NCBI GenBank assembly: GCA_963749085.1
Contig: CAVVLG010000002.1
Coordinates: 445,863 to 509,862 of the forward strand
DNA length: 64,000 nt
Direction: 5' to 3'
From: Candidatus Adlerbacteria bacterium
GTDB lineage: Bacteria > Patescibacteriota > Minisyncoccia > Phycocordibacterales > SBAW01
Each line of letters begins with the position of its first letter. Within the stretch, counting starts at the first letter, position 1. The position numbers were made by a program, and so were the translations under genes. Below the pieces are notes generated by a model that ran no database searches, had not been told where the DNA came from, and saw only the letters and a list, made by a program, of their open reading frames with translations. Below are positions 2,557 to 62,918 of the stretch, piece by piece.

Positions 2557-3182
2557 ACAAGGATAATTCAGCGTTACTCGGCCATTCTAGTTGAAGGTGT
2601 CCACCAGTGCAAAGGTGGATAAAAATAGCCGACATCAGATGATGCTGGCTGTAAACAGGAAGAAGGAACGGGATAGAGAAAGTAGGAGACGGAAAACTGT
2701 GGGGATATGAGCGGAATGGAAATGGAAGGAACAAGAGAGTAAGGGCGAGAGGATAAGAGGGACGAGCGTGATAAAAATCAGAGGCTCAAAAAGTGATGTG
2801 GAGTTTGTGTAACGCCAACGTTTTGGTTTTACCCACAGACCTACGCTGTCAGTCCGTCTATGTATGAGTACCTCCCTATGATGTAAAAGGTTACAAAAAA
2901 GGAGCCTCCGATGGTGGAGGCTCGAAAGAACAATTATGCTGCGTTTGCAGGAAGAAGAGGCTCCTCCGTTCTCTCTGGGTGAGAAAAAACTTCTCGTTCA
3001 TCCTCACCATGAAAGTCCTTGACTGGGTTTTTGCTCGGCAGTGGCAAGTATGCTTCCGCCATCCAGAAACCAAGGCGAGATAAGATCTCCAAGCCAAGCA
3101 TGGCAAACTCCCCTATGAGGCGTCCATTCTGCGATTAAGTATGTGCTTGCTTAGACTGTTAGCAAGGTGTCAGGGTGCGCGA

Positions 3183-3207
3183 AAAACCCCGCTTTTGCGG
3201 GGTTTTT
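3183..3207. terminator. Rho-independent terminator after rplL
   Basis: aaaaccccgc-tttt-gcggggtttt hairpin 25 bp downstream of the rplL stop. Confidence 0.7.
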
Positions 3208-3230
3208 GGTTGACCTATTGCATGTGGAAT

Positions 3231-3605
3231 TTATTTCAGCTCAACCTTGCCTCCCGCGGCCTCGACAGCCACTTTAAGCTTGTCTGCATCTTCCTTCTTC
3301 AATCCTTCTTTAAGCACCGTAGGCGCCGCGTCGACAAGGTCCTTAGCCTCTTTGAGGCCAAGCCCCAAGGCATCCTTGACCGCCTTGATGACCTGTACCT
3401 TCTGCGCGCCCGCGTCAATGAGATGAGCGCTGAAGGCACTCTTCTCCTCGCCTGCTGCGGCACCAGCGGCGGCACCGGGCGTTGCGACCGCAACCGGCGC
3501 TGCGCTCACGCCCCAGCGCGACTCGAGAGTTTTGACGAGCTCGTTAAGCTCCAAGACCGACATTTTCTCTACCTGATCGATGATATCTTTGTGTGTATCC
3601 GCCAT
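3231..3605 (-). CDS. rplL: 50S ribosomal protein L7/L12
   Basis: 124 aa; N-terminal dimerisation region, Ala/Gly/Pro hinge and C-terminal [23 protein letters not shown]...[20 protein letters not shown]-like domain. Confidence 0.95.
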
Positions 3606-3620
3606 ATAGTTATTTTTTAT

Positions 3621-4109
3621 TTAGTCTGCTTTTTTTGCTTGCTCACTGAGCACAACCGCGAAGCGCTGCAACGGACTGTTGAGAATTTGCGCGAACTGCG
3701 CTCGTAGCACCTCAAGTCCTGGTATCGTCGCGATGGAAATAATCTTTCCCTTGTCGACATACGCGCCGCCAAAGACACCCCCCACAAATGAAAGCATGCC
3801 GGGAAATTTCTTAACGAAGGCTGCGAGTTCCCGCGCGGGAGCGAGTTCATCCGCTCCGTACGCTATTGCTATCTCCCCCTCAAGCACAGGCGCTTCCCCC
3901 GTGAAGCCCGCACTTCCAAGTGCCCGGCGAAGAAGGGATTTCTTTGCCACGGTGTAACCGACATGCTGTGCGCGAAGTGTTTTGCGCATTTCGTTTTGTG
4001 CAGACACGTTAAGTCCTTTGAAATTGGCAAAGACGATGGTCTTCGACTTGGCAGCGATATCGCCCACTTTTTCTACAATTTCCTCTTTTTTCTTTTGTGT
4101 GATTGCCAT
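3621..4109 (-). CDS. rplJ: 50S ribosomal protein L10
   Basis: MAITQKKKEEIV...TVAKKSLLRRAL...GIAYGADEL pattern; immediately upstream of rplL. Start chosen at the internal Met of the 185-aa ORF. Confidence 0.9.
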   Translation of the reverse strand: MAITQKKKEEIVEKVGDIAAKSKTIVFANFKGLNVSAQNEMRKTLRAQHVGYTVAKKSLLRRALGSAGFTGEAPVLEGEIAIAYGADELAPARELAAFVKKFPGMLSFVGGVFGGAYVDKGKIISIATIPGLEVLRAQFAQILNSPLQRFAVVLSEQAKKAD

Positions 4110-4414
4110 ATATGTTGGGTACAAAAAATACCCATTTAAAGGGCTTGTGTTCGACCTCGGCAGGATGGATTGCTCCAATTAACGCTTCGTGGCTACCTGC
4201 TATCTGTGGCCCTTATGAGGAAAGGCTACTGCGGTGCGGCTACGTTGTCAATGGTTGGTGAGACTTTTGAGGCGGTAAACAGCAAGATACCGAATGCGAC
4301 GCCTATAATGACGAGAAAGGCAAAAAAGAATCTGAAAAACGTCTTGGTAAAAAACCGATCCATGCTATTATTTTAACATAGAGATATATTACGTCGCAGC
4401 CGAAGCGCATATAC

Positions 4415-4450
4415 AAAAACCGCCCCTCGATCTCTCTTGGAGCGGTTTTT
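4415..4450. terminator. Putative terminator hairpin downstream of csp
   Basis: aaaaccgc...gcggttttt stem flanking a loop, 3' of the minus-strand csp. Confidence 0.4.
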
Positions 4451-4464
4451 GCTGCGAGAGCGGC

Positions 4465-4665
4465 TTATGCGCGCGTAACGTTAGTGGCGCTGAGGCCTTT
4501 TGGCCCTTCGACTACGTCAAAAGAAAGCGTATCGCCTTCTTTTAACTCGTCAAACATGACGCCATTGAGCTCCTTGGAGTGGAAGAAGAGGTCCTTCGTC
4601 TCGCCTTCGCGAGCGATGAATCCAAATCCCCTGTCCTTGACGAGCGTTTTGATTGTTCCTGTCAT
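4465..4665 (-). CDS. cspA: Cold-shock protein (CspA family)
   Basis: 66 aa, MTGTIKTLVKDRGFGFIAREGETKDLFFHSKEL... RNP1/RNP2 motifs. Confidence 0.92.
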   Translation of the reverse strand: MTGTIKTLVKDRGFGFIAREGETKDLFFHSKELNGVMFDELKEGDTLSFDVVEGPKGLSATNVTRA

Positions 4666-4758
4666 CTTTTTTTATATTTTCTGTGGGAAACCCGACCCTG
4701 TTTCTTAGTCTTCTAGACCATCTCCACTCTACCACCTAAGGTATTTTATGTCAACCAG

Positions 4759-5767
4759 TTATCCCCTCGTATTTGCCCTTTGGACATTCTGATAGACGAC
4801 TTTTGAAATCTGCGCAATGATGCTCTCAAGCGTCGGCAGGGGTGCCGAGCCCCGCGTCATGACACACAAGAAGATAGGGGTCGTTTGCGTAGACAATGCC
4901 GCAGTCGTGTAGTTCGTGCTCGGTGGTAACGCCGTTGGGCGCGATGCCGACAAGACCGAGCTTATGGGAGACGACGCGTCGAGCTTGCAACCCCCGCCAC
5001 AATTCCTTGCGTAAAACTAACCTGGCTCATCAGTTGAAGGGCTTTTTCAGAATCGTCTCTGCGAGAGATAGGTCGCGTTATACAGTACGCGGAACAGGGT
5101 TGAAATCTGGTGAGCGGTTATAAAGTCGGCATTTGCCAACGTGACGTTATCTTCCGAAGGAATACCGAGGTCGCCGTACACTCGTGCTGAGCGTATCCGG
5201 GTCAATGTTGGCGTCCAAGAGAGCCGTGGCGTTGTTGTCGGAATATTTGATCATATAGCCAAGAAGCTGCTCCACTGTATAGGTGCGTCCTGGCACAATG
5301 GCTTCCGGCGGCGGAATATCCTGCATCTGGTTTAAATCAGTGCTACCTACTGGATAGGTAAGTTCTTTGTTTAAGACACTGGGATTATTTTCGGACTCTT
5401 GATAATAGGCAATGAGTATCGGTATTTTCCCGAGGCTTGAGGGGTAAAATAGTTCATTTCCGTATACGCTTGCCCAAGCGCCGGTGGTAAGATCCGTAAA
5501 ATAAACGGAAGCTTTGCTGATGTCTCCATCGTTTGTGTGAGTATCGATGATACTCTGGATCTCTTTGCCGAGAAGCGTATTTTCGGTATATACATTTGAG
5601 TTATTGATATTGCACGCAAGAAGCGGATCAATAAACTTGTATCCGCTGAGTCGAAGTGACTGCGCAGGTACAGTATAGTCGCGTGCTCCTTTTATAAACC
5701 ATCCCGCTCCAAATCCAGCCGCACCGATGACGACTGCCACTGCCACTAGTAGTACAAGGTTTTTCAT
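4759..5767 (-). pseudogene. Class A beta-lactamase-like serine hydrolase, disrupted by at least 2 frameshifts and an internal stop
   Basis: 206-aa N-terminal ORF has a signal peptide, an SLGK (SxxK) motif and YSDNNATALL (SDN motif). The downstream sequence continues in two other frames (LGIPSEDNVTLANADFITAHQISTLFRVLYNATY...; ...HKLGLVGIAPNGVTTEHELHDCGIVYANDPYLLVCMTRGS), resembling the KTG / C-terminal region. Confidence 0.6.
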
Positions 5768-45847: not shown

Positions 45848-45944
45848 TGCTTGAAATTATATCTTACTTCTTGAGAGCGGCGCCCAGTTCTAATTTTCAC
45901 TAGGGTAGTAAAATCACCCTTGAAAAATAAAGTCCAAAAACCTG

Positions 45945-46017
45945 GGCGGCTACAGGGAATCGAACCCTGATCGAGAGCTCCACAAGCTCCAGTGTTAACC
46001 GTTACACCATAGCCGCC
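45945..46017 (-). tRNA. tRNA-His (anticodon GTG) with encoded G-1, no encoded CCA
   Basis: Reverse complement folds as g-GCGGCTA tg GTGT aacggtta ACAC t GGAGC ttGTGga GCTCT cgat CAGGG ttcgatt CCCTG TAGCCGC c; G-1:C73 pair typical of tRNA-His. Confidence 0.85.
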
Positions 46018-46044: not shown

Positions 46045-47091
46045 TTAGGGGTGAAAAAAGAAGGCGAAACCGATGATGGCGTAGGCGCCGAGGAGTTGTA
46101 CGCCTTCAAGCCAGTTGCTCTCGCCGTCGGCGATAATAAGATTTAGTATGAGCACGGACAGGACGATTGAAACAAGTTCGAAGGTGTTAAAAATAAGGTT
46201 CATTGGTTGATGCAACACCAATCCCGCGAGCACCAAGACGGGCGCTACGACCATTGCTATTTGTGTTGCCGAGCCGATAGCAATCTGAAGTGAAAGATCC
46301 ATACGATTTTTTCGCGCTACAATGACCGCCGATAGATTCTCAGCGGCATTACCAATAATAGCCAGGAAGATAACGCCTACAAAAAGCTCTGACCATCCGA
46401 GCGTGGCAACCAAAGGCTGTATGGAATTCACCAATAACTCGCTTATCCATGCGACTACGAGCGTTGCGACACACAATGTAAGCAGACTGCGCGAGATACT
46501 CCAACGTGGTTCAAACTTTCCTGCCTCCTCCATATAGAGGTGCTTGTGCGTGTGGAGGGAAAAAAAGAGGCTGGCAGCATAGAGTGCTAAAAGTGCGAAC
46601 GACACCCACACGCTCAGATATTCAACGACGCTATTGCTAAGTAGAGGCACGCTTTGCGATAAAATCGCAGGCATGACGAGCGCTATGACGGCGATAAAAA
46701 GCGTCGAGCCACCAATAAGTACGGCAGTCTTGTTGAACATCTGCTTCTCGCGCGACCATCCTCCCGCGAGCATCGAGAGTCCGAGTACCAAAAGCAAATT
46801 GCCGATGATCGAACCGGTGATGGACGCTTTGACCACTTCAATGAGTCCGGCGCGTAGCGCAAAAAAACCGATAATAAGTTCTGTCGCATTGCCAAAGGTT
46901 GCTGAGAGAAGTTCGCCTACGGCAGGCGACGTGCGTGTTGCGAGTTCCTCAGTCGATTCGCCGATGAATTTGGCAAGCGGCACGATGGCGAGCGCACAGA
47001 GAAAAAACACAATGGTTGGCGATACACCAAGCACCTGCGCCACAATGGCGACTGGCACGAAAATAAGCAGGATGAGAAAAAATTTATCCAT
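46045..47091 (-). CDS. Ca2+/H+ antiporter (CaCA family), copy 1
   Basis: Two alpha-repeat signature regions: GNATELIIGFFALRAG and GNAAENLSAVIVARKNRMDLSLQIAIGS; 348 aa. Confidence 0.9.
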   Translation of the reverse strand: MDKFFLILLIFVPVAIVAQVLGVSPTIVFFLCALAIVPLAKFIGESTEELATRTSPAVGELLSATFGNATELIIGFFALRAGLIEVVKASITGSIIGNLLLVLGLSMLAGGWSREKQMFNKTAVLIGGSTLFIAVIALVMPAILSQSVPLLSNSVVEYLSVWVSFALLALYAASLFFSLHTHKHLYMEEAGKFEPRWSISRSLLTLCVATLVVAWISELLVNSIQPLVATLGWSELFVGVIFLAIIGNAAENLSAVIVARKNRMDLSLQIAIGSATQIAMVVAPVLVLAGLVLHQPMNLIFNTFELVSIVLSVLILNLIIADGESNWLEGVQLLGAYAIIGFAFFFHP

Positions 47092-47393
47092 TAGTTCAGG
47101 TTTGAGTGCATTTCAAATACGTGTTGGGTTGGGTTGTGTTCGGCATGAAAGACTGTGGTGTGAATTTTATCGCCTCGCATTTCATAAAGCGGATGGGCAC
47201 TTTTACCTTCGGGATGAAATTCAGTCGCATACCACTTGCCGTCATGCACGCTGTAGAGCGGCTTGTCGGCAGAAGCGGTGTGGTTGAAGCGAGTCGCATA
47301 GACCTGACCTCCCCTCAGTTCATACTGCGGCCGCATAGAGTGAACTTCACCCGCATGACCATAGTGAGCCTGATGAATATACTGGGTATCCAT
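47091..47393 (-). CDS. Small repeat protein (3.5 x 16-aa Y-x-x-R-G-x-x-x-Y-x-T-x-F-H repeats), translationally coupled to the antiporter, copy 1
   Basis: PQYELRGGQVYATRFN / PLYSVHDGKWYATEFH / PLYEMRGDKIHTTVFH; stop overlaps the antiporter start; a paralogous pair exists at 56735-57070. Confidence 0.65.
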   Translation of the reverse strand: MDTQYIHQAHYGHAGEVHSMRPQYELRGGQVYATRFNHTASADKPLYSVHDGKWYATEFHPEGKSAHPLYEMRGDKIHTTVFHAEHNPTQHVFEMHSNLN

Positions 47394-47562
47394 TGTCCAT
47401 ATTTTACACCCAAATAATAGTATGGATCACACTGCGGGGTTAGAACCCCACACATGGACGGTACAAAGCGGGGCTGGAACTTGTCCCCAATAGAAAACGA
47501 CGCAGAATAGCTGGATAAATCGCGACAAAAATTGGAAGCAAGCTCTGAACTTTTTTGGGGGA

Positions 47563-51465: not shown

Positions 51466-51551
51466 GGTGCCCAGGAGAGGACTCGAACCTCCATGCCCTT
51501 GCGGGCGCTACCACCTCAAGGTAGTACGTCTACCAGTTTCGCCACCTGGGC
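51466..51551 (-). tRNA. tRNA-Leu (anticodon GAG), type II with long variable arm
   Basis: Reverse complement GCCCAGG tg GCG aaactggtaga CGT a CTACC ttGAGgt GGTAG cgcccgcaagggcat GGAGG ttcgagt CCTCT CCTGGGC a. Confidence 0.85.
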
Positions 51552-51557
51552 GTTCGT

Positions 51558-52031
51558 CTACTTTACAGCAGCTTCCTCTTTTTGAGGAGTAGTTTCTTCG
51601 GGAGCACGCGATCCTTCTTGAGAAGACTGCGGCGTAAAGGCAAGCTGCTTTCGCATAGCGCGCTTGACGTCGTGCGCGGCCTTGCGGCGGATAAAGTAAA
51701 GTTTTGCGCGACGAGTACGCGTGCGGCGCAGCACCTCTATCTCCTGGATCATCGGAGAATAAAGTGGAAATATTTTTTCAACCCCTACTCCGCTTGCCAC
51801 GCGGCGCACCGTGAACATGGCACCCGGCTCCGTGCCATGCTTGACCGCAAGTACCAGACCTTCAAATGCCTGTTTGCGGACGTTCTTGGTCGTTACTTCT
51901 TTTTTATTGGCTGCTTTGCCTTTTTTAAGCTCGACGATGTTTTGCCAGACACGCACCGTGTCCCCAGCACGCAGTCCCAGGTCCGCTCGCTCCTTCATAT
52001 TTACGGGGGAGATTTTGACTCCAGATTTCAT
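51558..52031 (-). CDS. rplS: 50S ribosomal protein L19 with C-terminal extension
   Basis: ...RAGDTVRVWQNIVELKKGK...RKQAFEGLVLAVKHGTEPGAMFTVRRVASGVGVEKIFPLYSPMIQEIEVLRR... Confidence 0.9.
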   Translation of the reverse strand: MKSGVKISPVNMKERADLGLRAGDTVRVWQNIVELKKGKAANKKEVTTKNVRKQAFEGLVLAVKHGTEPGAMFTVRRVASGVGVEKIFPLYSPMIQEIEVLRRTRTRRAKLYFIRRKAAHDVKRAMRKQLAFTPQSSQEGSRAPEETTPQKEEAAVK

Positions 52032-52060
52032 GACTTGTGTGCAAGGACTTTATCACAGAG

Positions 52061-52810
52061 CTACTCTTTGCGCAATTCATTTTCTGCTCTTACAAAATCT
52101 TCCGGCAGCGGGGCTTGAAACATCATCTCCTTTCCATTCGGATGAATAAAGGTAAGTGAGTGAGCATGGAGTGCGAGGCGGTTGAATCCGAGAAGCGGCG
52201 GACGAGTGGGCGCATAGAGTTGATCGCACACGATAGGGTGTTGTATCGCCGAGAAGTGCACTCTGATTTGGTGCGTGCGGCCGGTTTTTGGAAACGCTTC
52301 CACGTAGGAAACGCCAGCACCTCTCTGTATTACCCGATAGAGAGTTTCGGCTTGGCGCCGAGTGCCGTGCGGACGCGTGGCTGAGCGAGGCCCTAAGCCC
52401 CCGCGTGCAGAGCCGATAGGCCTCTCAATTATGCCGCGGTCATCTTTTAATATGCCGTATACGAAGGCACGGTAGGTCTTTTTTATTTCTCGGTCTTGAA
52501 ATTGCCTTTTTAAAAATTCGTAGGCTTTCTCGGTTTTTGCAATCAGTAAGATACCAGAAGTTTCTCTGTCGATTCGATGTACGAAATGAAACTCCGAATA
52601 TTTCTTCCCAAGCCACGCATCAAGCGCCGGGTAGTCATGCTTGCCGTCCGGATACACGATCATCCCGCTCGGTTTATCGATGACTACGACAGAGTCGTCC
52701 TCAAAAATAATCTTCGGTTCCATGTGCACCCTCACGGTAGCGCACCAGTCCAAGTGAAGCAACGTAAGGGTTCTTCGGGCACCATTGATCGTATTGTCAC
52801 GAGGTCTCAT
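52061..52810 (-). CDS. RluA-family pseudouridine synthase
   Basis: VIDKPSGMIVYP...HRIDRETSGILLIAKT motif (catalytic Asp); start position uncertain (52723-52900). Confidence 0.8.
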   Translation of the reverse strand: MRPRDNTINGARRTLTLLHLDWCATVRVHMEPKIIFEDDSVVVIDKPSGMIVYPDGKHDYPALDAWLGKKYSEFHFVHRIDRETSGILLIAKTEKAYEFLKRQFQDREIKKTYRAFVYGILKDDRGIIERPIGSARGGLGPRSATRPHGTRRQAETLYRVIQRGAGVSYVEAFPKTGRTHQIRVHFSAIQHPIVCDQLYAPTRPPLLGFNRLALHAHSLTFIHPNGKEMMFQAPLPEDFVRAENELRKE

Positions 52811-52816
52811 GGTCAG

Positions 52817-52880
52817 CGGCAAAACCGAACAAACCGAACACCAAAAGGCATAGTTTGAAGTGTTCGGTTTTTGTTCGTTT
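52817..52880. repeat. Hairpin repeat element A (ggcaaaaccgaacaaaccgaacac...gtgttcggtttttgttcg), related copy at 62507-62565
   Basis: 24-nt identical 5' arm plus complementary 3' arm in both copies; flanking 100-150 bp is also about 70% similar. Confidence 0.7.
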
Positions 52881-53419
52881 TTTGGCGTTCCAGCAAGCAC
52901 CCCAAGGGTATTCGCTGGATGGAAGGCTCAAAAAGCACCGTTCGCTTGGAGCCTCGTGGTTGCGAACCAAAAATGGACGAATTGGACGAAAAAACCGGGG
53001 TATTTGGATGTCCAATTTTTCAGCATAGTGTTACAAACTGTTACACTTTTCTAAGGGTACAAAAAATGAGGCGGTTGCAGAATACGCCTAAGGAAAAGAA
53101 CATTCTACTGAAGGAGGTGCATAACACTATTCGGAGGGCTGTACCACTGTAGCAAAAATCCATTGGACGGATGGATTGGACACAAAATCGTCCAATGGAG
53201 AACGTCCTACCACAGCGGGCAGTGAAATGCCAAGAAATGCCTAAAAATTGGGTGAGTTGTGCTTAAGAAGGTCGACATTTTGGCATTTGCCGCTCCAGCG
53301 ATTTTATACCGAATGGGACACGGAATGACGTGTCATATGTGTAATTTCAAGCCCTTTACCCCTGCAGCCCGGGGCCAATGATACCGAATGAGACTCCAAA
53401 ATAGGGCTTCATTTGGGAG

Positions 53420-53593
53420 CTATCTAATTTTCTGCTCAGCATTATCTCTGGACTGAGGCAACTCTGTAGTTACCCACGCGTCGTCCGCCTTGCAAACATA
53501 AACCGTGCGAGCATATGTCTTCCCATTATCAGAATTATGACTACTATCCGACCGCTTAATTTCCATTGAGAGATCGCAAACAGGACATTTCAT
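53420..53593 (-). CDS. Small zinc-ribbon-like protein (57 aa, MKCPVCD...YVCK)
   Basis: Found by manual translation (below the ORF-track cutoff); CxxC near the N-terminus plus a third Cys; TATAAT box 8 nt upstream suggests a leaderless transcript; sits in an 830-bp intergenic region full of repeats. Confidence 0.3.
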   Translation of the reverse strand: MKCPVCDLSMEIKRSDSSHNSDNGKTYARTVYVCKADDAWVTTELPQSRDNAEQKIR

Positions 53594-53733
53594 ATGTCGC
53601 CATTATATACCCTGCGCGTGGTGTACCATAATCAACAATTGCCTTCCAACTAAAAATTGCAGGGTATACTATCCTAAAGAGGGTCAGCAACCTTTTTTAT
53701 ACAATAAGCGCGATTCCAATTAACACTATTGCC

Positions 53734-54486
53734 ATGAGCAACAGCACAAGAAATTCCTTACTATGGGTTATAGGGTTCGTGGTGGTGTACTCGATTTTTG
53801 TCATAAAGGTCTCATCAACGGTCAGCGATTACTCGGATATCATCGTCGGCACGACCTTCTTTTTCACGTTGTTTATCGGTTACTTTATTGGGCGTCAAAA
53901 TGATCGATACTCAGAAATCTCTGACCAGCTCACTTCCAACGATGGCTGGTTCTCGTATCTATATCGCATTAGCGGTCTTGTGCCGCGCATCCAAGGTGAG
54001 GTGCGGGATATTCTCAAGGATCATTACTCAAAAATCATCGAGAGTAAGAATCTCGCATATCATGTCACGCACCCCTCCAACACACTTACAAGAATGACAA
54101 AAGCTTTGGGAAGCATCACAGAAGAAGAGAGTGGTAATCCAGCTGCGGGAGAGGCGTGGCCTTTTACTTTTGAGGTTATTTCTGACTTGCAGATAACTCG
54201 CAAAAAAATACTTAATCTATATGGAGAAAAATTGGTGCCGTTCCAATGGTCCATCGTTTACATACTGGCTGCCCTGTTGGTGGTCTCCTTTAATTTTGTT
54301 CCATCAACGTCTTGGCTCGTCACTATTTTGAAAATATGTTTTGGTACTGCCGTCTTCATTTCGATCATATTATTGCATCAGCTCGATAATCTGACGCTTT
54401 TTGGAGACAGCGCTGGAATGGATTCGGCGCACGATGTTATGCGTATTGTCGAAGAAAAAGATGCGGCCGAGCTTGGGAAAAAATAG
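53734..54486 (+). CDS. Hypothetical membrane protein
   Basis: 250 aa, 4 TM helices. Confidence 0.55.
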   Translation: MSNSTRNSLLWVIGFVVVYSIFVIKVSSTVSDYSDIIVGTTFFFTLFIGYFIGRQNDRYSEISDQLTSNDGWFSYLYRISGLVPRIQGEVRDILKDHYSKIIESKNLAYHVTHPSNTLTRMTKALGSITEEESGNPAAGEAWPFTFEVISDLQITRKKILNLYGEKLVPFQWSIVYILAALLVVSFNFVPSTSWLVTILKICFGTAVFISIILLHQLDNLTLFGDSAGMDSAHDVMRIVEEKDAAELGKK

Positions 54487-54495
54487 CTTGTATTT

Positions 54496-55686
54496 TTATC
54501 GGATATCCTGTAGCGCGAAAGAATACTTAAGTCCGAGCGCCATCACAACCGCCAGTACCAAAAAACTCCATTGTAGTGAGAACAGTTGGAGCGAGATCGA
54601 TGCGACTACGGCCGCGGCGACATACGTTGCAGGACGTGCGACACGGAAAAGGCTGATGGTGTCGGAGAAGGAGCTGTCGACGTGTTTGAAGAAATAGCTC
54701 TCCGTTGCTATCTCAGTGCAGCTTGCTCCAACGCGGCTGACAAACAAGACCACAGTCCAGAAGAGAAATACAGGTGTCGTAAGAAACGGCATGAGAGCAA
54801 CCATAAGCGCCATGAGCACAAAGCCGACTATCATTATTTCTTTTTCGTCGTATCGCATATCCGCAATTCTGCCAAGCGGCAGCTCAAGCAGTAGGAACGG
54901 CAGAAGCATGATGGCAAACATTATCCCTATCTGCGCCCACGTAAACCCAACGTAGCGGAATAAATAGAGCGGTGTATAGATGACCATCCACGCGTAGAAA
55001 AAGCGTAGAAGGAATTGCGCCGCGAATACGTTATATAGATTGGGACGCTTAAAAACGTATGCGAGGGATTCCCGCAAGGAACGGTGATTGTACGAAGCAT
55101 CATGGAATGTTCGCAGCCGCGAAACAATGACCGCCAGTCCTATCAGTAAAAAGGCCACTGACACGAGGTATACTTTCCAAAACGCATCGGTAGAATCGAG
55201 TAGCAGTCCAGCTATGAGCGGACATACTACCTGCGCGATATTGATCATGGTGAGAAAAAGCCCGCGCATCCCGCCAGTGACTCGCTCATCCTTTATGAAT
55301 TTCTCGAGAAAAATGTCGAGGTTGAGGTAAATCACCGGCGAGATAGCGAGAAAGACAGTGAAGAAAAACAATACCGCCATAGAGCCGTGCGCGAACGCGA
55401 GACCCACAAGCGATAGGGCTTCGAGCAGGATGAAAAATGATATCAGCCTGTAATTTCCGATCCTTTTTAAGATGCGGGAGAAATACGCAAAGAAAAGGAG
55501 ACTTATAAGCGAGCCTATGATGTAAAGTATGCTGATTCCGCTGTCGCTGAGATACTGGCTTAAAAAAGAGGAGTTTATGTAGATGATTAGGAAGTAGTGA
55601 AAAGAGACGAACAGATTGGCAATATATACCGCGCTTACATCCGAGTCCTTACGCCTCCACAAAAAATCAGCCATTGACGTGCGCAT
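54496..55686 (-). CDS. MFS-type transporter
   Basis: 396 aa, 12 predicted TM helices, MFS-like loop motifs. Confidence 0.65.
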   Translation of the reverse strand: MRTSMADFLWRRKDSDVSAVYIANLFVSFHYFLIIYINSSFLSQYLSDSGISILYIIGSLISLLFFAYFSRILKRIGNYRLISFFILLEALSLVGLAFAHGSMAVLFFFTVFLAISPVIYLNLDIFLEKFIKDERVTGGMRGLFLTMINIAQVVCPLIAGLLLDSTDAFWKVYLVSVAFLLIGLAVIVSRLRTFHDASYNHRSLRESLAYVFKRPNLYNVFAAQFLLRFFYAWMVIYTPLYLFRYVGFTWAQIGIMFAIMLLPFLLLELPLGRIADMRYDEKEIMIVGFVLMALMVALMPFLTTPVFLFWTVVLFVSRVGASCTEIATESYFFKHVDSSFSDTISLFRVARPATYVAAAVVASISLQLFSLQWSFLVLAVVMALGLKYSFALQDIR

Positions 55687-55688
55687 GT

Positions 55689-56735
55689 TTAGGGATGAAA
55701 AAAGAAGGCGATGCCGATGATCGCGTAGGAGCCGAGGAGCTGCACGCCTTCAAGCCAATTGCTCTCGCCGTCGGCGATTATGAGGTTGACGATAAGCACG
55801 GAGAGAACGATCGAAACGAGTTCGAAGATATTGAATATAAGGTTCATCGGCTGGTGGATTACCAATCCCGCGAGCACCAACACCGGCGCCACGACCATCG
55901 CTATCTGTGTTGCAGAGCCCATGGCGATTTGGAGCGAGAGATCCATGCGATTTTTACGCGCTACGATAACTGCAGAGAGATTCTCCGCGGCATTGCCGAT
56001 GATGGCCAAGAAAATAACGCCGACGAACAGCTCAGACCATCCCAGTGTGGCAACCAGCGGTTGAATGGAATTAACCAATAATTCGCTTACCCATGCGACT
56101 ACGAGCGTCGCGGCACACAAAGTAAGAAGACTGCGTGAGACGCTCCAGCGCGGTTCATACTTTCCCGCTTCTTCCAGATATAGATGCTTGTGGGTATGCA
56201 AAGAGAAAAAGAGGGTGGCGCCGTAGAGCACGAGGAGCGCTACTGATACCCACAGACTCATGTCTTCGACAATGCCGCCCGTGAGAAGCGGAGCGGTCTG
56301 CGACAAAATGGCTGGCATCACAAGTGCTATAGCGGCGATAAAAAGGGTTGAACCGCTGGCAAGCACGGCGGTTTTGTTGAACGTCTGCTTCTCGCGCGAC
56401 CAACCGCCTGCGAGCATTGAGAGCCCGAGCACCAAAAGCAAATTACCGATAATGGAGCCAGTAATCGATGCCTTGACCACTTCTATAAGCCCTGCGCGCA
56501 GGGCAAAAAAACCGATAATAAGCTCAGTCGCGTTACCGAACGTCGCTGAAAGAAGCCCGCCTACGGCGGGCGATGTACGTGTCGCCAGTTCCTCAGTTGA
56601 TTCCCCGATGAATTTGGCGAGCGGCACTATGGCGAGCGCGCAGAGAAAAAATATAATAGTGGGCGATATGCCAAGAGCCTGCGCTGCGATGGCGACGGGC
56701 ACGAACACCAGCAGGATGAGAAAAAATTTATCCAT
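55689..56735 (-). CDS. Ca2+/H+ antiporter (CaCA family), copy 2
   Basis: About 85% aa identity to copy 1, same alpha-repeat motifs; DNA differences concentrated at third codon positions. Confidence 0.9.
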   Translation of the reverse strand: MDKFFLILLVFVPVAIAAQALGISPTIIFFLCALAIVPLAKFIGESTEELATRTSPAVGGLLSATFGNATELIIGFFALRAGLIEVVKASITGSIIGNLLLVLGLSMLAGGWSREKQTFNKTAVLASGSTLFIAAIALVMPAILSQTAPLLTGGIVEDMSLWVSVALLVLYGATLFFSLHTHKHLYLEEAGKYEPRWSVSRSLLTLCAATLVVAWVSELLVNSIQPLVATLGWSELFVGVIFLAIIGNAAENLSAVIVARKNRMDLSLQIAMGSATQIAMVVAPVLVLAGLVIHQPMNLIFNIFELVSIVLSVLIVNLIIADGESNWLEGVQLLGSYAIIGIAFFFHP

Positions 56736-57070
56736 TAGTGCAGATTTGCCCTCACTTCAAATGAGTGCTGGGTCGGATTGTAATCGGGATGAAAGGTAGT
56801 TGTGTGGATTTTATCGCCCCGCATCTCGTAAAGCGCATGCGGCGATTTTCCTCCTGGATGGAATTCCGTCGCGTACCACTTGCCGTCGCGCACGGTGTAG
56901 AGCGGCTTGTCGGCGGGAGCCTCGCGATTGAAGCGGGTCGCATACACCTGACCTCCCCGCAGCTCATACTGAGGCCGGAGTGAGTGCTCCCCGCCCGCAT
57001 GGCCATATTCAGCCTGATGAATGTATTGGATATCCATAGCTAAAACTCTAACATTTAAGAGGTTTTTCAA
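56735..57070 (-). CDS. Small Y-x-x-R-G...T-x-F-H repeat protein, copy 2, coupled to antiporter copy 2
   Basis: PQYELRGGQVYATRFN / PLYTVRDGKWYATEFHP / ALYEMRGDKIHTTTFHP repeats. Confidence 0.65.
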   Translation of the reverse strand: MKNLLNVRVLAMDIQYIHQAEYGHAGGEHSLRPQYELRGGQVYATRFNREAPADKPLYTVRDGKWYATEFHPGGKSPHALYEMRGDKIHTTTFHPDYNPTQHSFEVRANLH

Positions 57071-57100
57071 AACTCAGTTACCAACAGCTTGCCAACTCAC

Positions 57101-57141
57101 CCCTACTGGACTCTTAGGAGGGTTGGCGTCATCCATTGACC
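57101..57141. promoter_or_regulatory. Conserved inverted-repeat element upstream of serine recombinase 1 (putative recombination/operator site)
   Basis: ccctactggactcttaggagggttggcgtcatccattgacc, homologous to 60921-60962 upstream of recombinase 2. Confidence 0.5.
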
Positions 57142-57177
57142 TGTCGAAATTAGCAGACACATAACAGGCCTAGACAT

Positions 57178-58509
57178 ATGGAAGCACATATAGCAGAAGG
57201 TTTGGAGCAGATGGGCGTAGCCGCTCCGCAGGAGAAAGCAGCAGTGCAAATTAAATATTGCCTCTATGCTCGAAAGAGCACCGAGGACGATGAGCATCAA
57301 GCGCTCTCCATTGATAGTCAAATCAAGGAGATGACCACGCTGGCGGTGAGAGAGAAATTAGACGTAGTCGAAGTGCGGTCGGAAAAACACTCCGCCAAGG
57401 CCGCTGGGCAGCGTCCGGTGTTTCGGCAGCTGCTCGCTGATCTGAGGACAGGTGTATTTAACGGCATACTCACCTGGGCACCCGACAGGTTGTCGCGCAA
57501 CGGCGGCGATCTTGGCGTAGTAGTCGATCTCATGGATCAGAAGTGTTTGGCAGAGATACGGACGTACACGCAGAAGTTCACCAATAACCCCAATGAGAAA
57601 TTTCTGCTCATGATATTGGGTAGCCAGGCTAAACTCGAGAACGACAACAAGAGCCTGAACATAAAACGCGGGCTCAAAGCTCGCGCCGAGATGGGGCTGT
57701 GGCCTGGCATAGCGCCTACGGGCTACCTCAATGACAAGAGGAGTGACCACAAGTGCGAAGTGCTGGTGGACCCCCTGCGTTCCTCAGTGGTGAAGCAAAT
57801 ATTCGAGAAGGTCGGACGCGACAGGTTGAGCGGAAGAAAAGTCTATGCGTGGTTGCGGGGTGATGTCCGCTTCACCACACGGTATGGCAAACCGCTGAGT
57901 TTGAGCAACATCTACAATATGCTGAGAAATCCCTTCTACTGCGGCATGTACGAGTTCCCCCGCAGGTCGGGACAGTGGTACACCGGCAAACACACGCCCC
58001 TCATCACCAAGGAGCTGTTCCAGTTGGCGCAGGAGAAACTGGCGGAGGAGAATAGGCCACGGAAGAAGTTCCAGGACTTCACCTTCACCCGTCTCATGAC
58101 CTGCGGGTATTGCGGGTCAGGTATCACAGCCCAGGAGAAGGCCAAGAACCTCAAAGACGGCTCGGTGCGTTGGTACATTTACTACAGCTGCAACAAGCAC
58201 AAAGATCACCACTGCAAGAATCCATATATCAGGGAGGACAATCTCATATCCCTCCTCCTAGAGATATTGAACCAAGTATCCATAGATGAGATAGGGGCAC
58301 GCCATCTCATCGAGCGAGAGGTGGCGCGGTACAACAAACTCAGAACCGCTATGGGTTATACCGACAAAGACACGGCGAAGGATATGGACACCAGAAAATA
58401 TGCTAAGTATCTCCTTCAGCATGGGACGCCTCAGGAGAAACGCGAACTGCTTGAACACCTCAGAAACAGGATTGTGATGAAGGACAGGAAAATATCCATA
58501 TCAGATTAG
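57178..58509 (+). CDS. Large serine recombinase (resolvase catalytic domain + recombinase domain + zinc ribbon)
   Basis: [19 protein letters not shown] (catalytic Ser), recombinase domain, [10 protein letters not shown]...CNKHKDHHC zinc-ribbon; 443 aa. Confidence 0.88.
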
Positions 58510-59216
58510 TTGCCTTTTTCACACATACGCACCTCACCGGTCTCAGGATCTTGTATGACGTTTTCAGCCCATGTTCTGCCTCCTAAAGGAGAAAGCGGCT
58601 TATCCAGTGAATACAGTGGGGCAAGACCACGACCCGCATACTCGAGTGTTTTGAAAACGTATCCCAAAAAGGAACCCGTGAATCGATAGCGACGAATACA
58701 TGCGGCAATTTGTTCTTCTAGAATGTCGCCAAAGCCACCCCAGCGCTGAAGTACATAATATTTCTCAACCCAGTCGTCGACTGCATATCTGATGAGTGTC
58801 ACGGCCTCTTGCCGTGCAAGCACATTGCCCTTTTGAGCGACTCGTACGAAGGCGACAAGTATGCGATCCCGCGTCCGGCGGTCTTGGTCATCCAACGCAG
58901 TAATCAAAGTATAGATTTTGTCACGATATTTAGTGAGTACCAGATCAACCTCACCTTGATTCTCATACGGTTTCTTTGCTCTACGTCTGCGGCCATTCCA
59001 TTTAGGTTGAAGCGATCGATCAAGAACGCTAGTGACCGCATCCCAATCAATATTGCCCGTTGGTGTTCTGAGATTGAGTCGGATGAATCGGTATGCTCGG
59101 GGAGCGTGCTGATATACCCAAGTGCCGGAGAACGACTTAGGATTCTTTTTGGAGAGAACGGTGCTTAAGATGTAAATCGCCTTGTCAAAGTTCACACTGT
59201 GTAAGTGTAAGACCAA
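58506..59216 (-). CDS. Hypothetical protein (mobile-element associated)
   Basis: 236 aa, convergent with and overlapping the recombinase 1 stop. Confidence 0.5.
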
Positions 59217-59296
59217 AAAGTTTTGTTCGTTGACCCCTCTAGGTTGCGAACCAACCTCGAGATATTTCGAGGCCTAGTGGACGGCTAGATGGGCCG

Positions 59297-59369
59297 CTGA
59301 CTGCTGTGCACGCTGCAGGACTCGAACCTGCGACCTTCCCCGTGTAAAGGGGTTGCTCTACCAACTGAG
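59297..59369 (-). tRNA. tRNA-Val (anticodon TAC)
   Basis: Reverse complement GCACGCT ta GCTC agttggtag GAGC a ACCCC ttTACac GGGGA aggtc GCAGG ttcgagt CCTGC AGCGTGC a. Confidence 0.85.
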
Positions 59370-59912
59370 CTAAGCGTGCGTGCCCCTCCACGGTATCGCA
59401 CCGTACCAAGCGAGGCAACGCAAGGGCCGTTTGGCCCATCAGCGACCTCTTGATTCGATGCCTCACGGTAGGGTTGTAAATGAGACATAATGAGACACTA
59501 CTCGCGCATATCTGTAACTGTCTCATTTACGGCATTCCGGCAAGCAGAATAAGGGGATTCGAGGATTTAGGTGCTGTCTCAGGAGCTTTTCGAGCGCGCC
59601 GCACGGTATCGCACCAGAATCTTACAAATCTGACAGGGGGTCAGGGTTCAAAATGCTACAAAAGTGACACGAGAACGATACGTTCAGCTGTAACTTTTCG
59701 GGATCAAAATGCCACGAATGCGACAGTCGAAATGGCACACTTTGGCACACAGATACGGTGTGTGCCGAACGTATGATTTTCACCCCTTTCTACTGCCCGA
59801 CTCAAGGCAGACCCTTGCTCGTTTAACGAAAATGGCATAGCACACTGTTCGGGGAGAGTGTGCCCTTTCTTAAACGCTAAAAACGCCGATCGTGAGAAAT
59901 CGCTAGGTGTAG

Positions 59913-60842
59913 TTATTTCTTTAGCGACAAAGTACGTCTTAAGGAAGCTAGGGCTTTCTCTTGAGCATCCATGTCCTCGTTGATATTTCCAGACGACTCA
60001 GCAAAGGCCATCTCGATAAGTCTTAAATCCTGCTCCGAAGAAGCACTTTCAACCATATTTAGCATATGCGCTTCATAAGGAGCCCAAGGTAGTTCCTTTG
60101 AGCCTTGTCTCATTTTCTCTGCTTTCTTTGTCCCGAGCAACGAGTCGACTTTTTCCTGAAGTTGTATCGCTTCGGTCGTTTGAGTCTCGTAACGCTCCTT
60201 GAGCTCGCCAAAGATACGCTTAATGTCTGTCGACAACTTTTCCTTGCCTTCTTCCAAAGAATCGAGTTCTTCCTGACTAAATGACCGTGGTTGATTTGCT
60301 CGAACTGCTAAAAAATCTACGACATTATTTTCTCGACTAACGCCGCCTTCTTCCTGTCCCGTTTCTGCCGGATGGACTTCACCGTAAAGCGAAGATCCAA
60401 GAAGATTCATTCTGTTCTGAAATTCCAGAAACTTATCAGGAGGAATTCCTCCTTTTTTTTTCCAATCACGGAGCCTTGTTTGCGCGTCAGCGTGCCAAGA
60501 TTTTGCTGAAGCGATATCTTGTGTCGCGAAAAAACCGTCAGCTCGCGCAAGCACGTTAGAGATTTCAGCACTCGGGAGTTGAGCAATCATTTCGCGCGCC
60601 TCATCATTAAAAGCAGACACGTCTACTCCCGCCTCTTCAGCGGAGGTTAAATTTTTCTGAAGATCTTCCCACACGGTATCTCCAAACATACGCTCCCCTC
60701 GCAAGGTCTTGCGAGCATGAGCCATTCTTGACTTAAGCACTTGAATTTCCCGAGAATCCTCAGGACTGCTTTCCAAGTCTTGATCTGGAGCGACTTCAGG
60801 TTTTTTCTTGGGTGGCGAATTAAAAGGATTTTCAGCTGACAT
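59913..60842 (-). CDS. Hypothetical acidic coiled-coil protein
   Basis: 309-aa ORF, no recognisable motif. Confidence 0.5.
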   Translation of the reverse strand: MSAENPFNSPPKKKPEVAPDQDLESSPEDSREIQVLKSRMAHARKTLRGERMFGDTVWEDLQKNLTSAEEAGVDVSAFNDEAREMIAQLPSAEISNVLARADGFFATQDIASAKSWHADAQTRLRDWKKKGGIPPDKFLEFQNRMNLLGSSLYGEVHPAETGQEEGGVSRENNVVDFLAVRANQPRSFSQEELDSLEEGKEKLSTDIKRIFGELKERYETQTTEAIQLQEKVDSLLGTKKAEKMRQGSKELPWAPYEAHMLNMVESASSEQDLRLIEMAFAESSGNINEDMDAQEKALASLRRTLSLKK

Positions 60843-60917
60843 GGCTCGTTCGGTTAGAGTTTATAAAGCAAGATGGACTTTCAATATTATAACTCATTTC
60901 CGTGTTTTTGATGTCTC

Positions 60918-60962
60918 CAGACCCTCCTGGACTCCCAGGAGGGTCTGCGTCATCCATTAGAC
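60918..60962. promoter_or_regulatory. Perfect 13-bp inverted repeat with 4-bp spacer (cagaccctcctgg-actc-ccaggagggtctg) plus conserved gcgtcatccatt box, 23 nt upstream of recombinase 2
   Basis: Palindrome seen directly; shares about 75% identity with the element upstream of recombinase 1. Confidence 0.6.
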
Positions 60963-60984
60963 CGTTAACAATTAACGGCAATAT

Positions 60985-62310
60985 ATGGAAACAGCAACGA
61001 TTCAAGGTGGTTTTGGGGCGGCAGTCGCTCCCGCAGAGGCCGTGTCTCTTAAGTACTGTCTGTACGCGAGAAAAAGCACGGAATCGGAAGAACAGCAGGT
61101 GTTGAGCATCGATAGCCAGATAAAGGAGATGCTAGCCTTAGCTGAGAAAGAGAAGTTAGAGATCGTAGAGATCAAGCGCGAAAGCCATTCCGCCAAAGAA
61201 GCCGGAGCGCGTCCGGTCTTCAACGAGATTGTGGACGAGATACGCACTGGGAAGTTCAACGGGATATTAACGTGGGCACCCGATCGTATATCACGCAATG
61301 CCGGAGACTTGGGACGCATAGTGGACTTGATGGATAGTAAGCACCTCGTCGACATCCGCACCTATGGCCAGCGCTTCGGCAACAATCCGAATGAGAAGTT
61401 TCTTCTGATGATTCTCGGGAGCCAAGCGAAGCTCGAGAACGACAACAAGCGCATTAACGTAAAGCGCGGATTGAAGGCGAGAGCGGAGATGGGGTTGTTC
61501 CCGTGCACCGCGCCGACGGGATACTTCAACGACAACCGAAGTGACCATCGCTGCGAGATTGTCATCGATCCGATTCGCGCGCCCTTGATGAAGCAGATGT
61601 TCGAGAAGGTTGGTCAGGAACGGTGGAGCGGGAGAAAGACCTACTTGTGGCTCAAGAACGATGCTCGATTTACGAGCAAGAGCGGCAAGGCCTTGAGCTT
61701 GAGCAATGTATACAACTTGCTTCGCAATCCCTTCTTCTGCGGCGTGTTCGAGTATCCAAGAGGCAGTGGGAGCTGGTATACCGGCAAGCATCAGTCGCTC
61801 ATCTCACAGGAGCTGTTCCAAGCAGTCCAAGAAAAGCTCGCCGAGGAAACGCGCAAGAAAACCGCCCGCAACGACTTCACCTTCACCAAGCTCATGACCT
61901 GCGGTCTCTGCGGCTCCGGCATCACGGCTCAGGAGAAATCGAAAGCGCTCAAGGACGGTTCGACCAACTGGTACATCTATTACTCCTGCACCAAGAGCCG
62001 AGACAAATCCTGCAAGAACCCATTTGTACGTGAGGACTACCTTGTCACACAACTTCTCGGTATCATCGACCAAATCAGTATCGACGAGATTGGGGCACGC
62101 TCACTGATTGAACGTGAGGTTGCGAGATACAACACGCTGCGTGCGGAGGTGGAGGGTGTGCCGGAAACCCTTAAAGCCAATGAAATGGACTTCAGAAAGT
62201 ATGCGAAGTATCTTCTCAAGAACGGGAGTCCAACTGAGCAACGAGAATTGCTTGAGCACTTGCGGAACCGACTTGTGCTGAAAGACCGACAAATCGCACT
62301 CGAGAGCTAA
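60985..62310 (+). CDS. Large serine recombinase, paralog 2
   Basis: [19 protein letters not shown]..., [10 protein letters not shown]...CTKSRDKSC zinc ribbon; about 70% identical to 57178-58509. Confidence 0.88.
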
Positions 62311-62313
62311 CGC

Positions 62314-62340
62314 AAAAGCCGGAGCGAATCTCCGGCTTTT
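62314..62340. terminator. Rho-independent terminator after recombinase 2 (aaagccggag-cgaat-ctccggctttt)
   Basis: Hairpin plus T-run. Confidence 0.7.
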
Positions 62341-62506
62341 ACGGGCAAACACCCTGCACGGTATCGCACTTTTTACGATGCCTCACGGACGTTAATTAGG
62401 TCTCTGACTGCGGTGCCCCTGCTCGGTCTCGACCCTGTGTGGGTGAGACCCTGTAAGGCTTCTTTAGGGGATTCCAGTATAGCAGAGCGAGGCCGCTCGG
62501 TCTGGG

Positions 62507-62565
62507 GCAAAACCGAACAAACCGAACACGGAAACAGGGTGTTTGAGTGTTCGCTTTTTGTTCAG
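62507..62565. repeat. Hairpin repeat element B (related to 52817-52880)
   Basis: ggcaaaaccgaacaaaccgaacac...gtgttcgctttttgttc. Confidence 0.7.
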
Positions 62566-62758
62566 AAATGGGACGAATGGGACACTTTTTGCATGATTTT
62601 GAAGTGTCCCATTTTGAGAGACAGGTGTCTTATTCGCCTCTAGAAAATGGCTCAGCCATATAAAAATGAGACAAATGAGACACTATTTGAGGGTATTTGA
62701 GGAGTGCCCCATTTTCAGGAGGCTCCAAAATATGCCTTAATCGCAGGACCTTGATGGC

Positions 62759-62787
62759 TTGACAAAACCGTTTTTTGGGTATATAAT
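62759..62787 (+). promoter_or_regulatory. Consensus sigma-70 promoter (TTGACA-17 nt-TATAAT) with structured about 120-nt leader
   Basis: ttgacaaaaccgttttttgggtatataat; the leader contains a perfect 10-bp inverted repeat cgccatagcg...cgctatggcg (62822-62879) and an AAAGGAA RBS before the ATG at 62919. Confidence 0.65.
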
Positions 62788-62918
62788 TGCCAACAAAGTT
62801 CCTTTATAACCTACTTGTAATCGCCATAGCGTAGAGATGCTTATTGATAGGCATTTGTGCGCTATGGCGAAACGCAATACCGTGTTAGCCCGCTAGCGTA
62901 GTCCGAAAGGAACTGACC

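Follow-up and report, generated by a model that had tools for sequence, protein, structure and literature searches.

We analysed a 64,000-nucleotide stretch of contig CAVVLG010000002.1 from a Candidatus Adlerbacteria bacterium (hereafter the window), in which two genes for large serine recombinases lie on either side of a tRNA-Val gene and are each headed by a related upstream element, here called U. The first gene, rec1 (57178-58509, plus strand), was defined by open reading frame (ORF) calling, Pfam and a homologue search and encodes 443 amino acids (aa), while rec2 (60985-62310, plus strand), defined by ORF call and Pfam, encodes 441 aa. The original prediction, made from the sequence alone, had described two such enzymes in the same orientation, and both ORFs were indeed found intact on the plus strand. 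The two proteins are close paralogues as had been stated, although their identity, given there as about 70%, was slightly lower when measured (67% across 430 aa). The resolvase, recombinase and zinc-ribbon domains ascribed to each were likewise confirmed, as Resolvase, Recombinase and Zn_ribbon_recom all scored above the Pfam cut-offs in both proteins. The N-terminal resolvase catalytic domain (PF00239) returned 82 and 77 bits in the two recombinases, PF07508 and PF13408 passed the cut-offs C-terminal to it, and about 80 residues follow the zinc ribbon. The catalytic-serine motif Y-A-R-K-S (YARKS) was present in both. By every sequence criterion tested, rec1 and rec2 are classed as large serine recombinases. 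The recombinases matched PHROG 95 'integrase' with E = 6e-68 and, among solved structures, SPbeta SprA best with E = 2e-13, and we assign the phage-type serine integrases as their closest characterised relatives.

A protein search returned at least 8,000 scored homologues, all with E values of 1e-20 or lower. The best 120 of these at least 8,000 sequences were 60-100% identical, and those among the 120 with a named source came from Patescibacteria (Minisyncoccia, Kaiserbacteria and others). A single scan of species-representative genomes yielded 589 recombinase loci, distributed over Kaiserbacteria, Paceibacteria, Doudnabacteria, Magasanikbacteria, Komeilibacteria and other taxa, and IMG/VR contigs added 33 further loci; in several cases two recombinase copies were located on one contig. 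Protein conservation within the family amounted to 54-86% across the phylum. On their sequences, rec1 and rec2 belong to a single, very large group of large serine recombinases within Patescibacteria. The family is apparently undescribed so far, and we found no paper on serine recombinases in Patescibacteria. The recombinase gene is a standard accessory gene of this phylum and not a rarity, which contradicts the earlier view that such an arrangement would be unusual in a streamlined genome. Some copies, designated here by the L numbers of their loci, showed particular arrangements. At L049 (87-2721) and L090 (9992-12653) pairs of recombinase genes stand tail to tail with a gap of 47-62 nt and no tRNA called between them. 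At L017 (3871-4990) an insertion with two transposase-like ORFs, possibly IS3-like, truncates the recombinase at residue ~95, while the recombinase of L118 is a partial copy.

The element U was delimited in the window by sequence reading, self-comparison and family alignment, supplemented for the first copy by a family profile. U1 (57078-57137, plus strand), 5' of rec1, is composed of TTACCAAC (57078-57085), TTGCCAAC (57089-57096), block 1 ACTGGACT (57105-57112), a 12-nt spacer and block 2 GGCGTCAT (57125-57132). U2 (60910-60958, plus strand), 5' of rec2, contains block 1 CCTGGACT (60926-60933), a spacer (60934-60945) and block 2 TGCGTCAT (60946-60953). That the elements before the two genes are homologous, as first noticed, was verified by an identity of 86% over 37 nt between 57101-57137 and 60922-60958. 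The core pattern of U occurred at two places only in the 64 kb, before rec1 and before rec2, against 0.12 expected by chance. From the end of its GCGTCAT to the ATG there are 45 nt at rec1 and 31 nt at rec2. The perfect 13-bp palindrome around ACTC reported for rec2 is real, the arms 60918-60930 and 60935-60947 being 100% complementary; in U1 the palindrome is imperfect, pairing being possible at about 8 of the 12 arm positions.

Profile analysis of the recombinase copies with enough upstream sequence revealed U before 82 of 114. Its layout comprises one to three TTAYCWAC repeats at 11-nt phasing, about 10 nt, TCTGGACT, a 12-nt spacer and TGCGTCAT, and the conserved part is represented by the two asymmetric blocks, TCTGGACT-N12-TGCGTCAT. 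The spacer is variable in sequence but fixed in length (12 nt in 56 of 66). A total of 77 U elements could be aligned without gaps, with GAC and the C, T, C, A and T of the TGCGTCAT block invariant. Dyad symmetry is not kept in the family: at least 9 of 12 complementary arm positions were reached in only 2 of 87 U elements, U2 of the window (12/12) and L004 (9/12), and mean pairing over 12 arm positions was 4.3 within a locus versus 3.9 for control arms taken from different loci. The proposal that the palindromes are attachment (att) cores was not upheld, since the dyad equals the cross-locus control and is not conserved in relatives with the same recombinases, U heads other genes too, and U is located inside the islands described below, with conserved regions 0.3-4 kb further left that are retained together with rec. 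The pattern T[GA]GAC-N13-14-[GCA][CG]GTCAT gave 84 matches in 1.3 Mb of fetched loci, every one on the recombinase strand. Among them 78 directly precede a recombinase gene and 6 precede other genes, which are a conserved 110-aa ORF (5 loci) and an N6/N4 DNA methyltransferase gene (L009). In 30 of 66 loci 10-12 nt separate the TGCGTCAT end (GCGTCAT) from the start codon, and at the 110-aa ORF the gap up to the GTG is likewise 10 nt; a Shine-Dalgarno-like sequence was seen in only 2 of 66 U-headed genes.

Several candidate identities of U were tried and discarded. A sigma-70 or sigma-54 promoter misfits in spacing and key bases, and a sigma-70-type promoter scan predicted nothing at U. The left arm does not correspond to a displaced 3' end of the local tRNA, as the acceptor sequences do not match, and a minus-strand small ORF starting from the CAT of GCGTCAT is broken after about 6 codons in L004, as judged by eye. 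The likeness of U block 1 to the pseudo-tRNA boxes described below extends to about 13 of 23 positions with a gap and was considered too weak to rely on.

The recombinase genes showed a strictly oriented linkage to tRNA genes. A tRNA was located downstream of the recombinase in 60 of 117 copies, and in every one of these 60 the first such tRNA was convergent, turning its 3' end towards the recombinase, while none was co-directional; upstream tRNAs occurred in only 10 of 117 copies, despite more upstream sequence being available. The downstream neighbours belong to 21 tRNA species and stand at a median distance of 1.0 kb from the recombinase, 17 of them within 150 nt. Adjoining the tRNA 3' end is a conserved block of 60-75 nt, termed T. 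Simple T-box motifs were detected at 22 of 58 recombinase-proximal tRNAs versus 0 of 37 other tRNAs, which include tRNA-His and tRNA-Leu of the window. The block goes with the recombinase and not with the tRNA: the rec1 orthologues at L002, L115 and L116 (75-89% nucleotide identity) share U, rec and T, and T adjoins tRNA-Arg(tct), tRNA-Arg(cct) and tRNA-Val(cac) at these loci and tRNA-Val(tac) in the window. T1, the copy next to rec1, is 76-83% identical to its three counterparts, so that the same block stands beside four different tRNAs.

Beyond unrelated cargo, a second conserved region, termed R, is shared to the left of U (window 52724-53050; L002 1222-1767; L115 8028-8476; L116 545-1108). 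It consists, in this order, of a 23-nt box resembling a tRNA 3' half, a second box and modules of two AATGNNACA direct repeats, some with an inverted copy. The likely island junctions are the T/tRNA border and the R box, far from the palindromes. The iteron modules gave 37 matches in the loci, of which 36 were on the recombinase strand and nearly all left of the recombinase. Each module is made of two tandem 9-mers (AATGNNACA), followed in some by the inverted copy about 20 nt on, and the central bases differ between modules; they were located at 52823, 59479, 62511 and 62665 in the window and also at L002, L015, L018, L038, L040, L066, L075, L077, L115 and L116. Such iterons could serve as operator, origin or partition-type sites. 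The tRNA-Ser 3' end is repeated exactly and in direct orientation over 17 nt (GCGGAGAGGGCGAGATT) at the distant locus L075, 300 nt to the left of U. An R-type iteron comes next, then U and rec, 2.7 kb of cargo and finally T with the tRNA, and from this arrangement attB and attP can be reconstructed.

Comparison with relatives allowed the tRNA-side junction to be located at two tRNA genes. At tRNA-Leu(gag)-rplS, L017 carries the split recombinase and T, whereas in the window T is missing next to the same tRNA-Leu-rplS pair. At tRNA-Val(tac), which is occupied in the window, L118 (from the same metagenome-assembled genome (MAG) as L116) contains neither T nor the rec1 island; a gene start directly abuts the tRNA there, and then the same region B as in the window follows. 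In both the L017/window and the window/L118 pair divergence sets in within 3 nt of the tRNA 3' end, the orthologous flank being on the tRNA side only. Moreover, the distance from the rluA start to tRNA-Val is about 100 nt in L012 versus about 6.6 kb in the window. The tRNA-Val(tac) of the window is 74-78% identical to those of L012 (1354-1433) and L003 (3333-3422) and 88-89% identical to those of L017 (9097-9162) and L118.

With these landmarks we place island 1 at about 52724-59305, ending at tRNA-Val, island 2 at 59380-62412 and the start of island 3 at 62413, a tandem set around tRNA-Val that bears out the tandem integrative elements envisaged in the original prediction. The far-left end of island 1, R1 (52724-53050, plus strand), is homologous to the regions left of the cargo in L002, L115 and L116 and holds a pseudo-tRNA 3'-half box (52724-52746, GTGCACCCTCACGGTAGCGCACC), a second box and two iterons AACCGAACA at 52823. 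Its first box directly abuts the rluA start codon and is degenerate as a tRNA half (15 of 23 positions), and the two island ends share GTGCAC (52724-52729 and 59306-59311). Pfam and gene calls defined a cargo on both strands (53734-57070) encoding a bestrophin-like protein (53734-54486, plus), an MFS transporter (54496-55686, minus), a Na/Ca exchanger (55689-56735, minus) and orf111 (56735-57070, minus); the cargo between R and U is not the same in L002, L115 and L116. Between rec1 and T1 lies orf236 (58506-59216, minus), which has no Pfam or PHROG match; its slot is empty in L002 and L115 and holds a non-homologous 292-aa ORF in L116. When neighbour genes conserved with the recombinase were sought none was found, and orf236 and the ORF in the same slot of L116 are unrelated. 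The Na/Ca exchanger and 111-aa ORF of the cargo are duplicated in the window (46048-47417 versus 55692-57070, with 90% and 74% aa identity). The copy at 46048-47417 adjoins tRNA-His (45944-46016), whose 3' side is unoccupied, and the other is the island 1 cargo. The right end of island 1 is T1 (59230-59305, plus; defined by homology to L002, L115 and L116), an island-borne block with a pseudo-tRNA half box TTGACCCCTCTAGGTTGCGAACC, a hairpin, a second box CCTAGTGGACGG and ...GCTGACTGCT at the junction. It adjoins the 3' end of tRNA-Val(tac) (59306-59379, minus), the putative target of island 1, whose 3' end is turned toward rec1.

Directly after the 5' end of tRNA-Val begins region B (59380-59770, plus), recognised by homology to L012 and L003 as an R-type left end of island 2. 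It includes a pseudo-tRNA half box (59380-59402), AATGAGACA repeats (59479-59497) and a further box (59597-59614), and is 82% identical to L012 1484-1738 and 73% to L003 3542-3819, both left of rec2-like genes. The hypothetical cargo gene of island 2, orf309 (59913-60842, minus), has no Pfam or PHROG match. A hairpin with a T-run 3' of rec2 (62318-62340, plus) is a likely intrinsic terminator, and analogous hairpins occur 3' of rec at many loci. The right-end block T2 (62345-62412, plus) is 85% identical to the T of L012, and its homologue adjoins tRNA-Arg(tct) in L012 and L003. In the window T2 runs straight into R2 (62413-62790, plus), the left end of island 3, whose first box, a pseudo-tRNA-Arg half (62413-62435), occupies the exact tRNA position of L012 and L003. 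The T2/R2 junction would look like the form expected of an intact attP or of a tandem-island junction. R2 also contains iterons (62511 and 62665) and, at its right edge, a perfect sigma-70 consensus promoter, TTGACA-17-TATAAT (62759-62787), directed into orf130, which encodes a weak RNA polymerase alpha-CTD-like domain. The two hypothetical genes, the tRNA-Val and the repeated motifs originally listed between the recombinases are all present, and the iteron-like motif families correspond to boxes and iterons belonging to T1, B, T2 and R2; CACGGTATCGCAC occurred three times in the window versus 0.04 expected. The independent Logan assembly L001 gave the same arrangement over 51466-62442. In the Logan assembly of ERR12036785 contig breaks fall precisely on the tRNA-Leu 3' end (51466) and on the T2/R2 junction (62413-62442), where contigs L001 and L117 overlap by about 30 nt, and this could be due to repeated sequence or structural heterogeneity at the junction. 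When proteins at the flanks of the window were looked up in order to reach past the 64 kb, one had no record and another led to nothing more than a 2.4-kb Logan contig. At the opposite end of the window, positions 1-395 correspond to the 5' end of a 23S rRNA gene on the minus strand, cut by the window start.

These data make it very probable that the products of rec1 and rec2 act as integrases for a pair of adjacent genomic islands that have inserted at tRNA 3' ends, a reading in which the protein family, the anatomy and conservation of U, T and R, the oriented tRNA linkage, the switching of targets, the variable cargo on both sides of rec and the comparative junctions come together. The island plan would be an R region with pseudo-tRNA half and iterons, cargo, U with rec, optional further cargo and T, followed by a tRNA convergent with rec. 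By a presumed recombination activity the enzyme would integrate a circular form, recombining its T/R joint with the last bases of the tRNA gene; integration would join the T end to the last few tRNA bases and the R end to the DNA formerly 3' of the tRNA, the exact crossover point being likewise presumed. Some observations weigh against this reading. The search for empty sites, while delivering the two tRNA-side junctions, found no strictly orthologous empty site with both flanks and no excised circle, and the predicted T/R joint, sought as a sign of circular junctions, had no match in the metagenome contigs searched. On its left side L118 has a non-orthologous flank, with acyP in place of rluA, and L012 and L003 carry tRNA-Val in the opposite orientation with respect to the flanks that they share with the window, which implies extra rearrangement in the past of the window site. 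In addition, the T and R boxes are direct and not inverted repeats, and no dyad was seen at T/tRNA or T2/R2.

The lack of any excision product or polymorphism would also suit islands that are old, immobile relics, with domesticated or inactive recombinases and flanking blocks kept for reasons unrelated to present recombination. The very high protein conservation across the phylum and the decayed copies, split in L017 and partial in L118, point the same way, but we hold this account to be unlikely, as close orthologues reside at four different tRNAs within a repertoire of 21 tRNA species, several copies may occur per contig, the cargo differs between close relatives and both window ORFs are intact with the YARKS motif. 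Several loci have type I restriction-modification genes upstream of U, including a half-length hsdS beside rec, which could suggest invertases that shuffle neighbouring genes, for example in hsdS phase variation. For the inversion module mentioned in the original prediction no evidence was found: the window contains no restriction-modification genes and no inverted copies of U or T, the association is not general, and the 60:0 convergent-tRNA bias fits integration, so that we judge inversion extremely improbable. At a level more speculative than the island model, and rather unlikely in our estimate, the compact (~440 aa) integrase clade might recognise the DNA of the acceptor/T-arm end of tRNA genes, with arrays of decoys that resemble tRNA halves placed in T, in R and on the left side of U. 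As an additional role, U would provide an internal docking site for self-repression and for module or island capture, on an integron-like accretion platform run by a serine recombinase; recognition of the universally conserved tRNA end would explain the use of at least 21 tRNA species.

As for the function of U, we favour, with a moderate degree of confidence, a dedicated promoter, with or without an operator, giving leaderless or near-leaderless mRNAs. This assignment was made because the element has asymmetric blocks, a fixed spacer and a fixed orientation, stands before the starts of three unrelated gene families and lacks a ribosome-binding site. U would drive the genes of the integration module from a presumed transcription start close to the start codon, and an alternative sigma factor and/or the recombinase itself is probably the protein that binds it; the autoregulatory operator offered as an alternative in the original prediction comes near this reading, in which an operator is optional. 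The 13-bp palindrome of U2 is a lineage-specific embellishment that may act as an operator overlapping the upstream block. The GGAC...CGTC blocks recall the promoters of extracytoplasmic function (ECF)-type sigma factors. On the other side of the balance, classical ECF-type promoters usually have a spacer of 16-17 nt, about 1-2 nt more than the ~15 nt of GGAC-N15-CGTC, and no cognate sigma factor for U was identified, no search aimed at sigma factors having been made. Furthermore, where close relatives are compared, their homology frequently sets in 5-31 nt to the left of the U core, an onset for which a recombination site at U could account as well, and block 1 together with the sequence on its left bears a weak likeness to the pseudo-tRNA boxes, so that the recombinase may bind there.

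Participation of U in module exchange nevertheless seems improbable, and we give the same low standing to U as itself a recombination site, either a secondary att or a res-like site, which would mediate integron-style exchange or capture of modules or, as U1 and U2 are direct repeats, excision of the 3.8-kb segment between them. Besides the homology onset and the box-like left part, the 13-4-13 geometry of U2 is that of a serine-recombinase dimer site, and in five loci U and a further copy, U', are direct repeats around one 110-aa gene missing in the close relative L071. However, the left flank of U in L071 matches that of U in L050 and not that of U', and this indel between L050 and L071 consequently did not arise from a crossover at the core. 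The unconserved dyad symmetry and the location of the island boundaries away from U also speak against a recombination site, while the fixed orientation and the 10-12 nt to the starts of three gene families are better fitted by a promoter. Homology break-points had initially favoured U-rec-T as the entire mobile element with U as its left end; this was abandoned as the R regions, the L075 repeat and viral-contig contexts show island DNA left of U. Even less credit is due to an RNA-level element, such as a structured 5'-UTR or a translational element of the recombinase mRNA. A hairpin is possible in U2 and a few relatives (L004, L003), and the longer leaders contain a second hairpin whose sequence is changed with pairing kept (CCGTTAA/TTAACGG in U2, CCTGT/ACAGG in U1). 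Against this, the RNAalifold consensus fold of 77 U elements had 3 pairs and -0.39 kcal/mol with no covariation or compensatory change, Rfam matched only tRNA and rRNA and nothing at U when the region was searched with a permissive threshold and the whole window with gathering scores, and no more than 10-12 nt lie between the element and the ATG in 30 of 66 loci.

Further genes were observed near the islands of other loci. In L028, L029, L031 (~3100-4900), L084, L086 and L089 the genes immediately upstream of U, divergent from rec, encode type I restriction-modification proteins and an OLD/AAA ATPase; the hsdM of L029 has an apparent N-terminal helix-turn-helix by eye, and in L089 the half-length hsdS adjoins rec. 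Reverse transcriptase (RT) genes were detected in L050 (3004-4408) and L115 (14736-16117). In L115 the RVT_1 gene has bAvd as its partner, a pairing suggestive of a diversity-generating retroelement. In L050, as compared with L042, the RT has been inserted immediately left of U'.

Serine integrases are highly valued in genome engineering, yet are thought almost never to target tRNA genes (PMC7192596). In the survey of Mageeney et al. 2020 (PMC7192596), use of tRNA or tmRNA genes by serine integrases was described as previously unreported and was found for only 14 of 297 elements, and experimental proof of it was requested. That generalisation would be overturned by a phylum-wide, tRNA-targeting family whose orientation signature is 60:0, and such a family would supply many compact integrases with a predictable attB (tRNA 3' end) and attP (T+R joint). 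It would likewise account for the way in which transporters, restriction-modification systems and other accessory genes enter the ultra-small genomes of Patescibacteria, and would provide a rule for locating island boundaries and integration-module promoters in the many MAGs of the Candidate Phyla Radiation (CPR) where these enzymes are annotated merely as 'recombinase family protein'.

Finally, we compared the islands with known systems. SprA/YokA of SPbeta and the integrases of TP901-1, phiC31, Bxb1 and A118 have the same three-domain architecture (Resolvase, Recombinase, Zn ribbon), and phage-type serine integrase genes are likewise located at one end of the integrated element. Unlike these enzymes, the proteins described here are short (~440 aa), their targets are the 3' ends of many tRNA genes instead of one protein-coding or intergenic site, and no recombination directionality factor was identified. 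In large serine recombinases directionality is controlled by a coiled-coil motif of the zinc-ribbon domain. The att sites of known serine integrases are about 40-50 bp long, with an imperfect dyad that surrounds a 2-bp crossover, whereas the conserved flanking DNA found here is long (T ~75 nt, R >300 nt) and built of direct repeats. The islands share with tRNA-targeting tyrosine-integrase islands (P4-like, 'Islander'-type) the position of the integrase gene next to a tRNA 3' end, a tRNA 3' fragment or pseudo-tRNA half at the far boundary (17 nt in L075), tandem arrays and a variable cargo that often includes defence genes, but the enzyme is a serine recombinase. The res site/tnpR promoter of the Tn3 family also is a conserved site immediately 5' of a serine recombinase gene, a similarity of position that makes autoregulation by the enzyme plausible; U differs from res in that it has no conserved dyad subsites and is also found before non-recombinase genes, and the enzymes are large and integrase-type. 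Promoters of alternative (ECF-type) sigma factors resemble U in their two blocks (GGAC...CGTC) with a spacer fixed in length and variable in sequence, and those of leaderless mRNAs in being placed just before start codons devoid of a Shine-Dalgarno sequence. What is new with respect to all these systems is a large clade of compact, putative serine integrases dedicated to tRNA 3' ends, equipped with a promoter-like element and elaborate flanking DNA.

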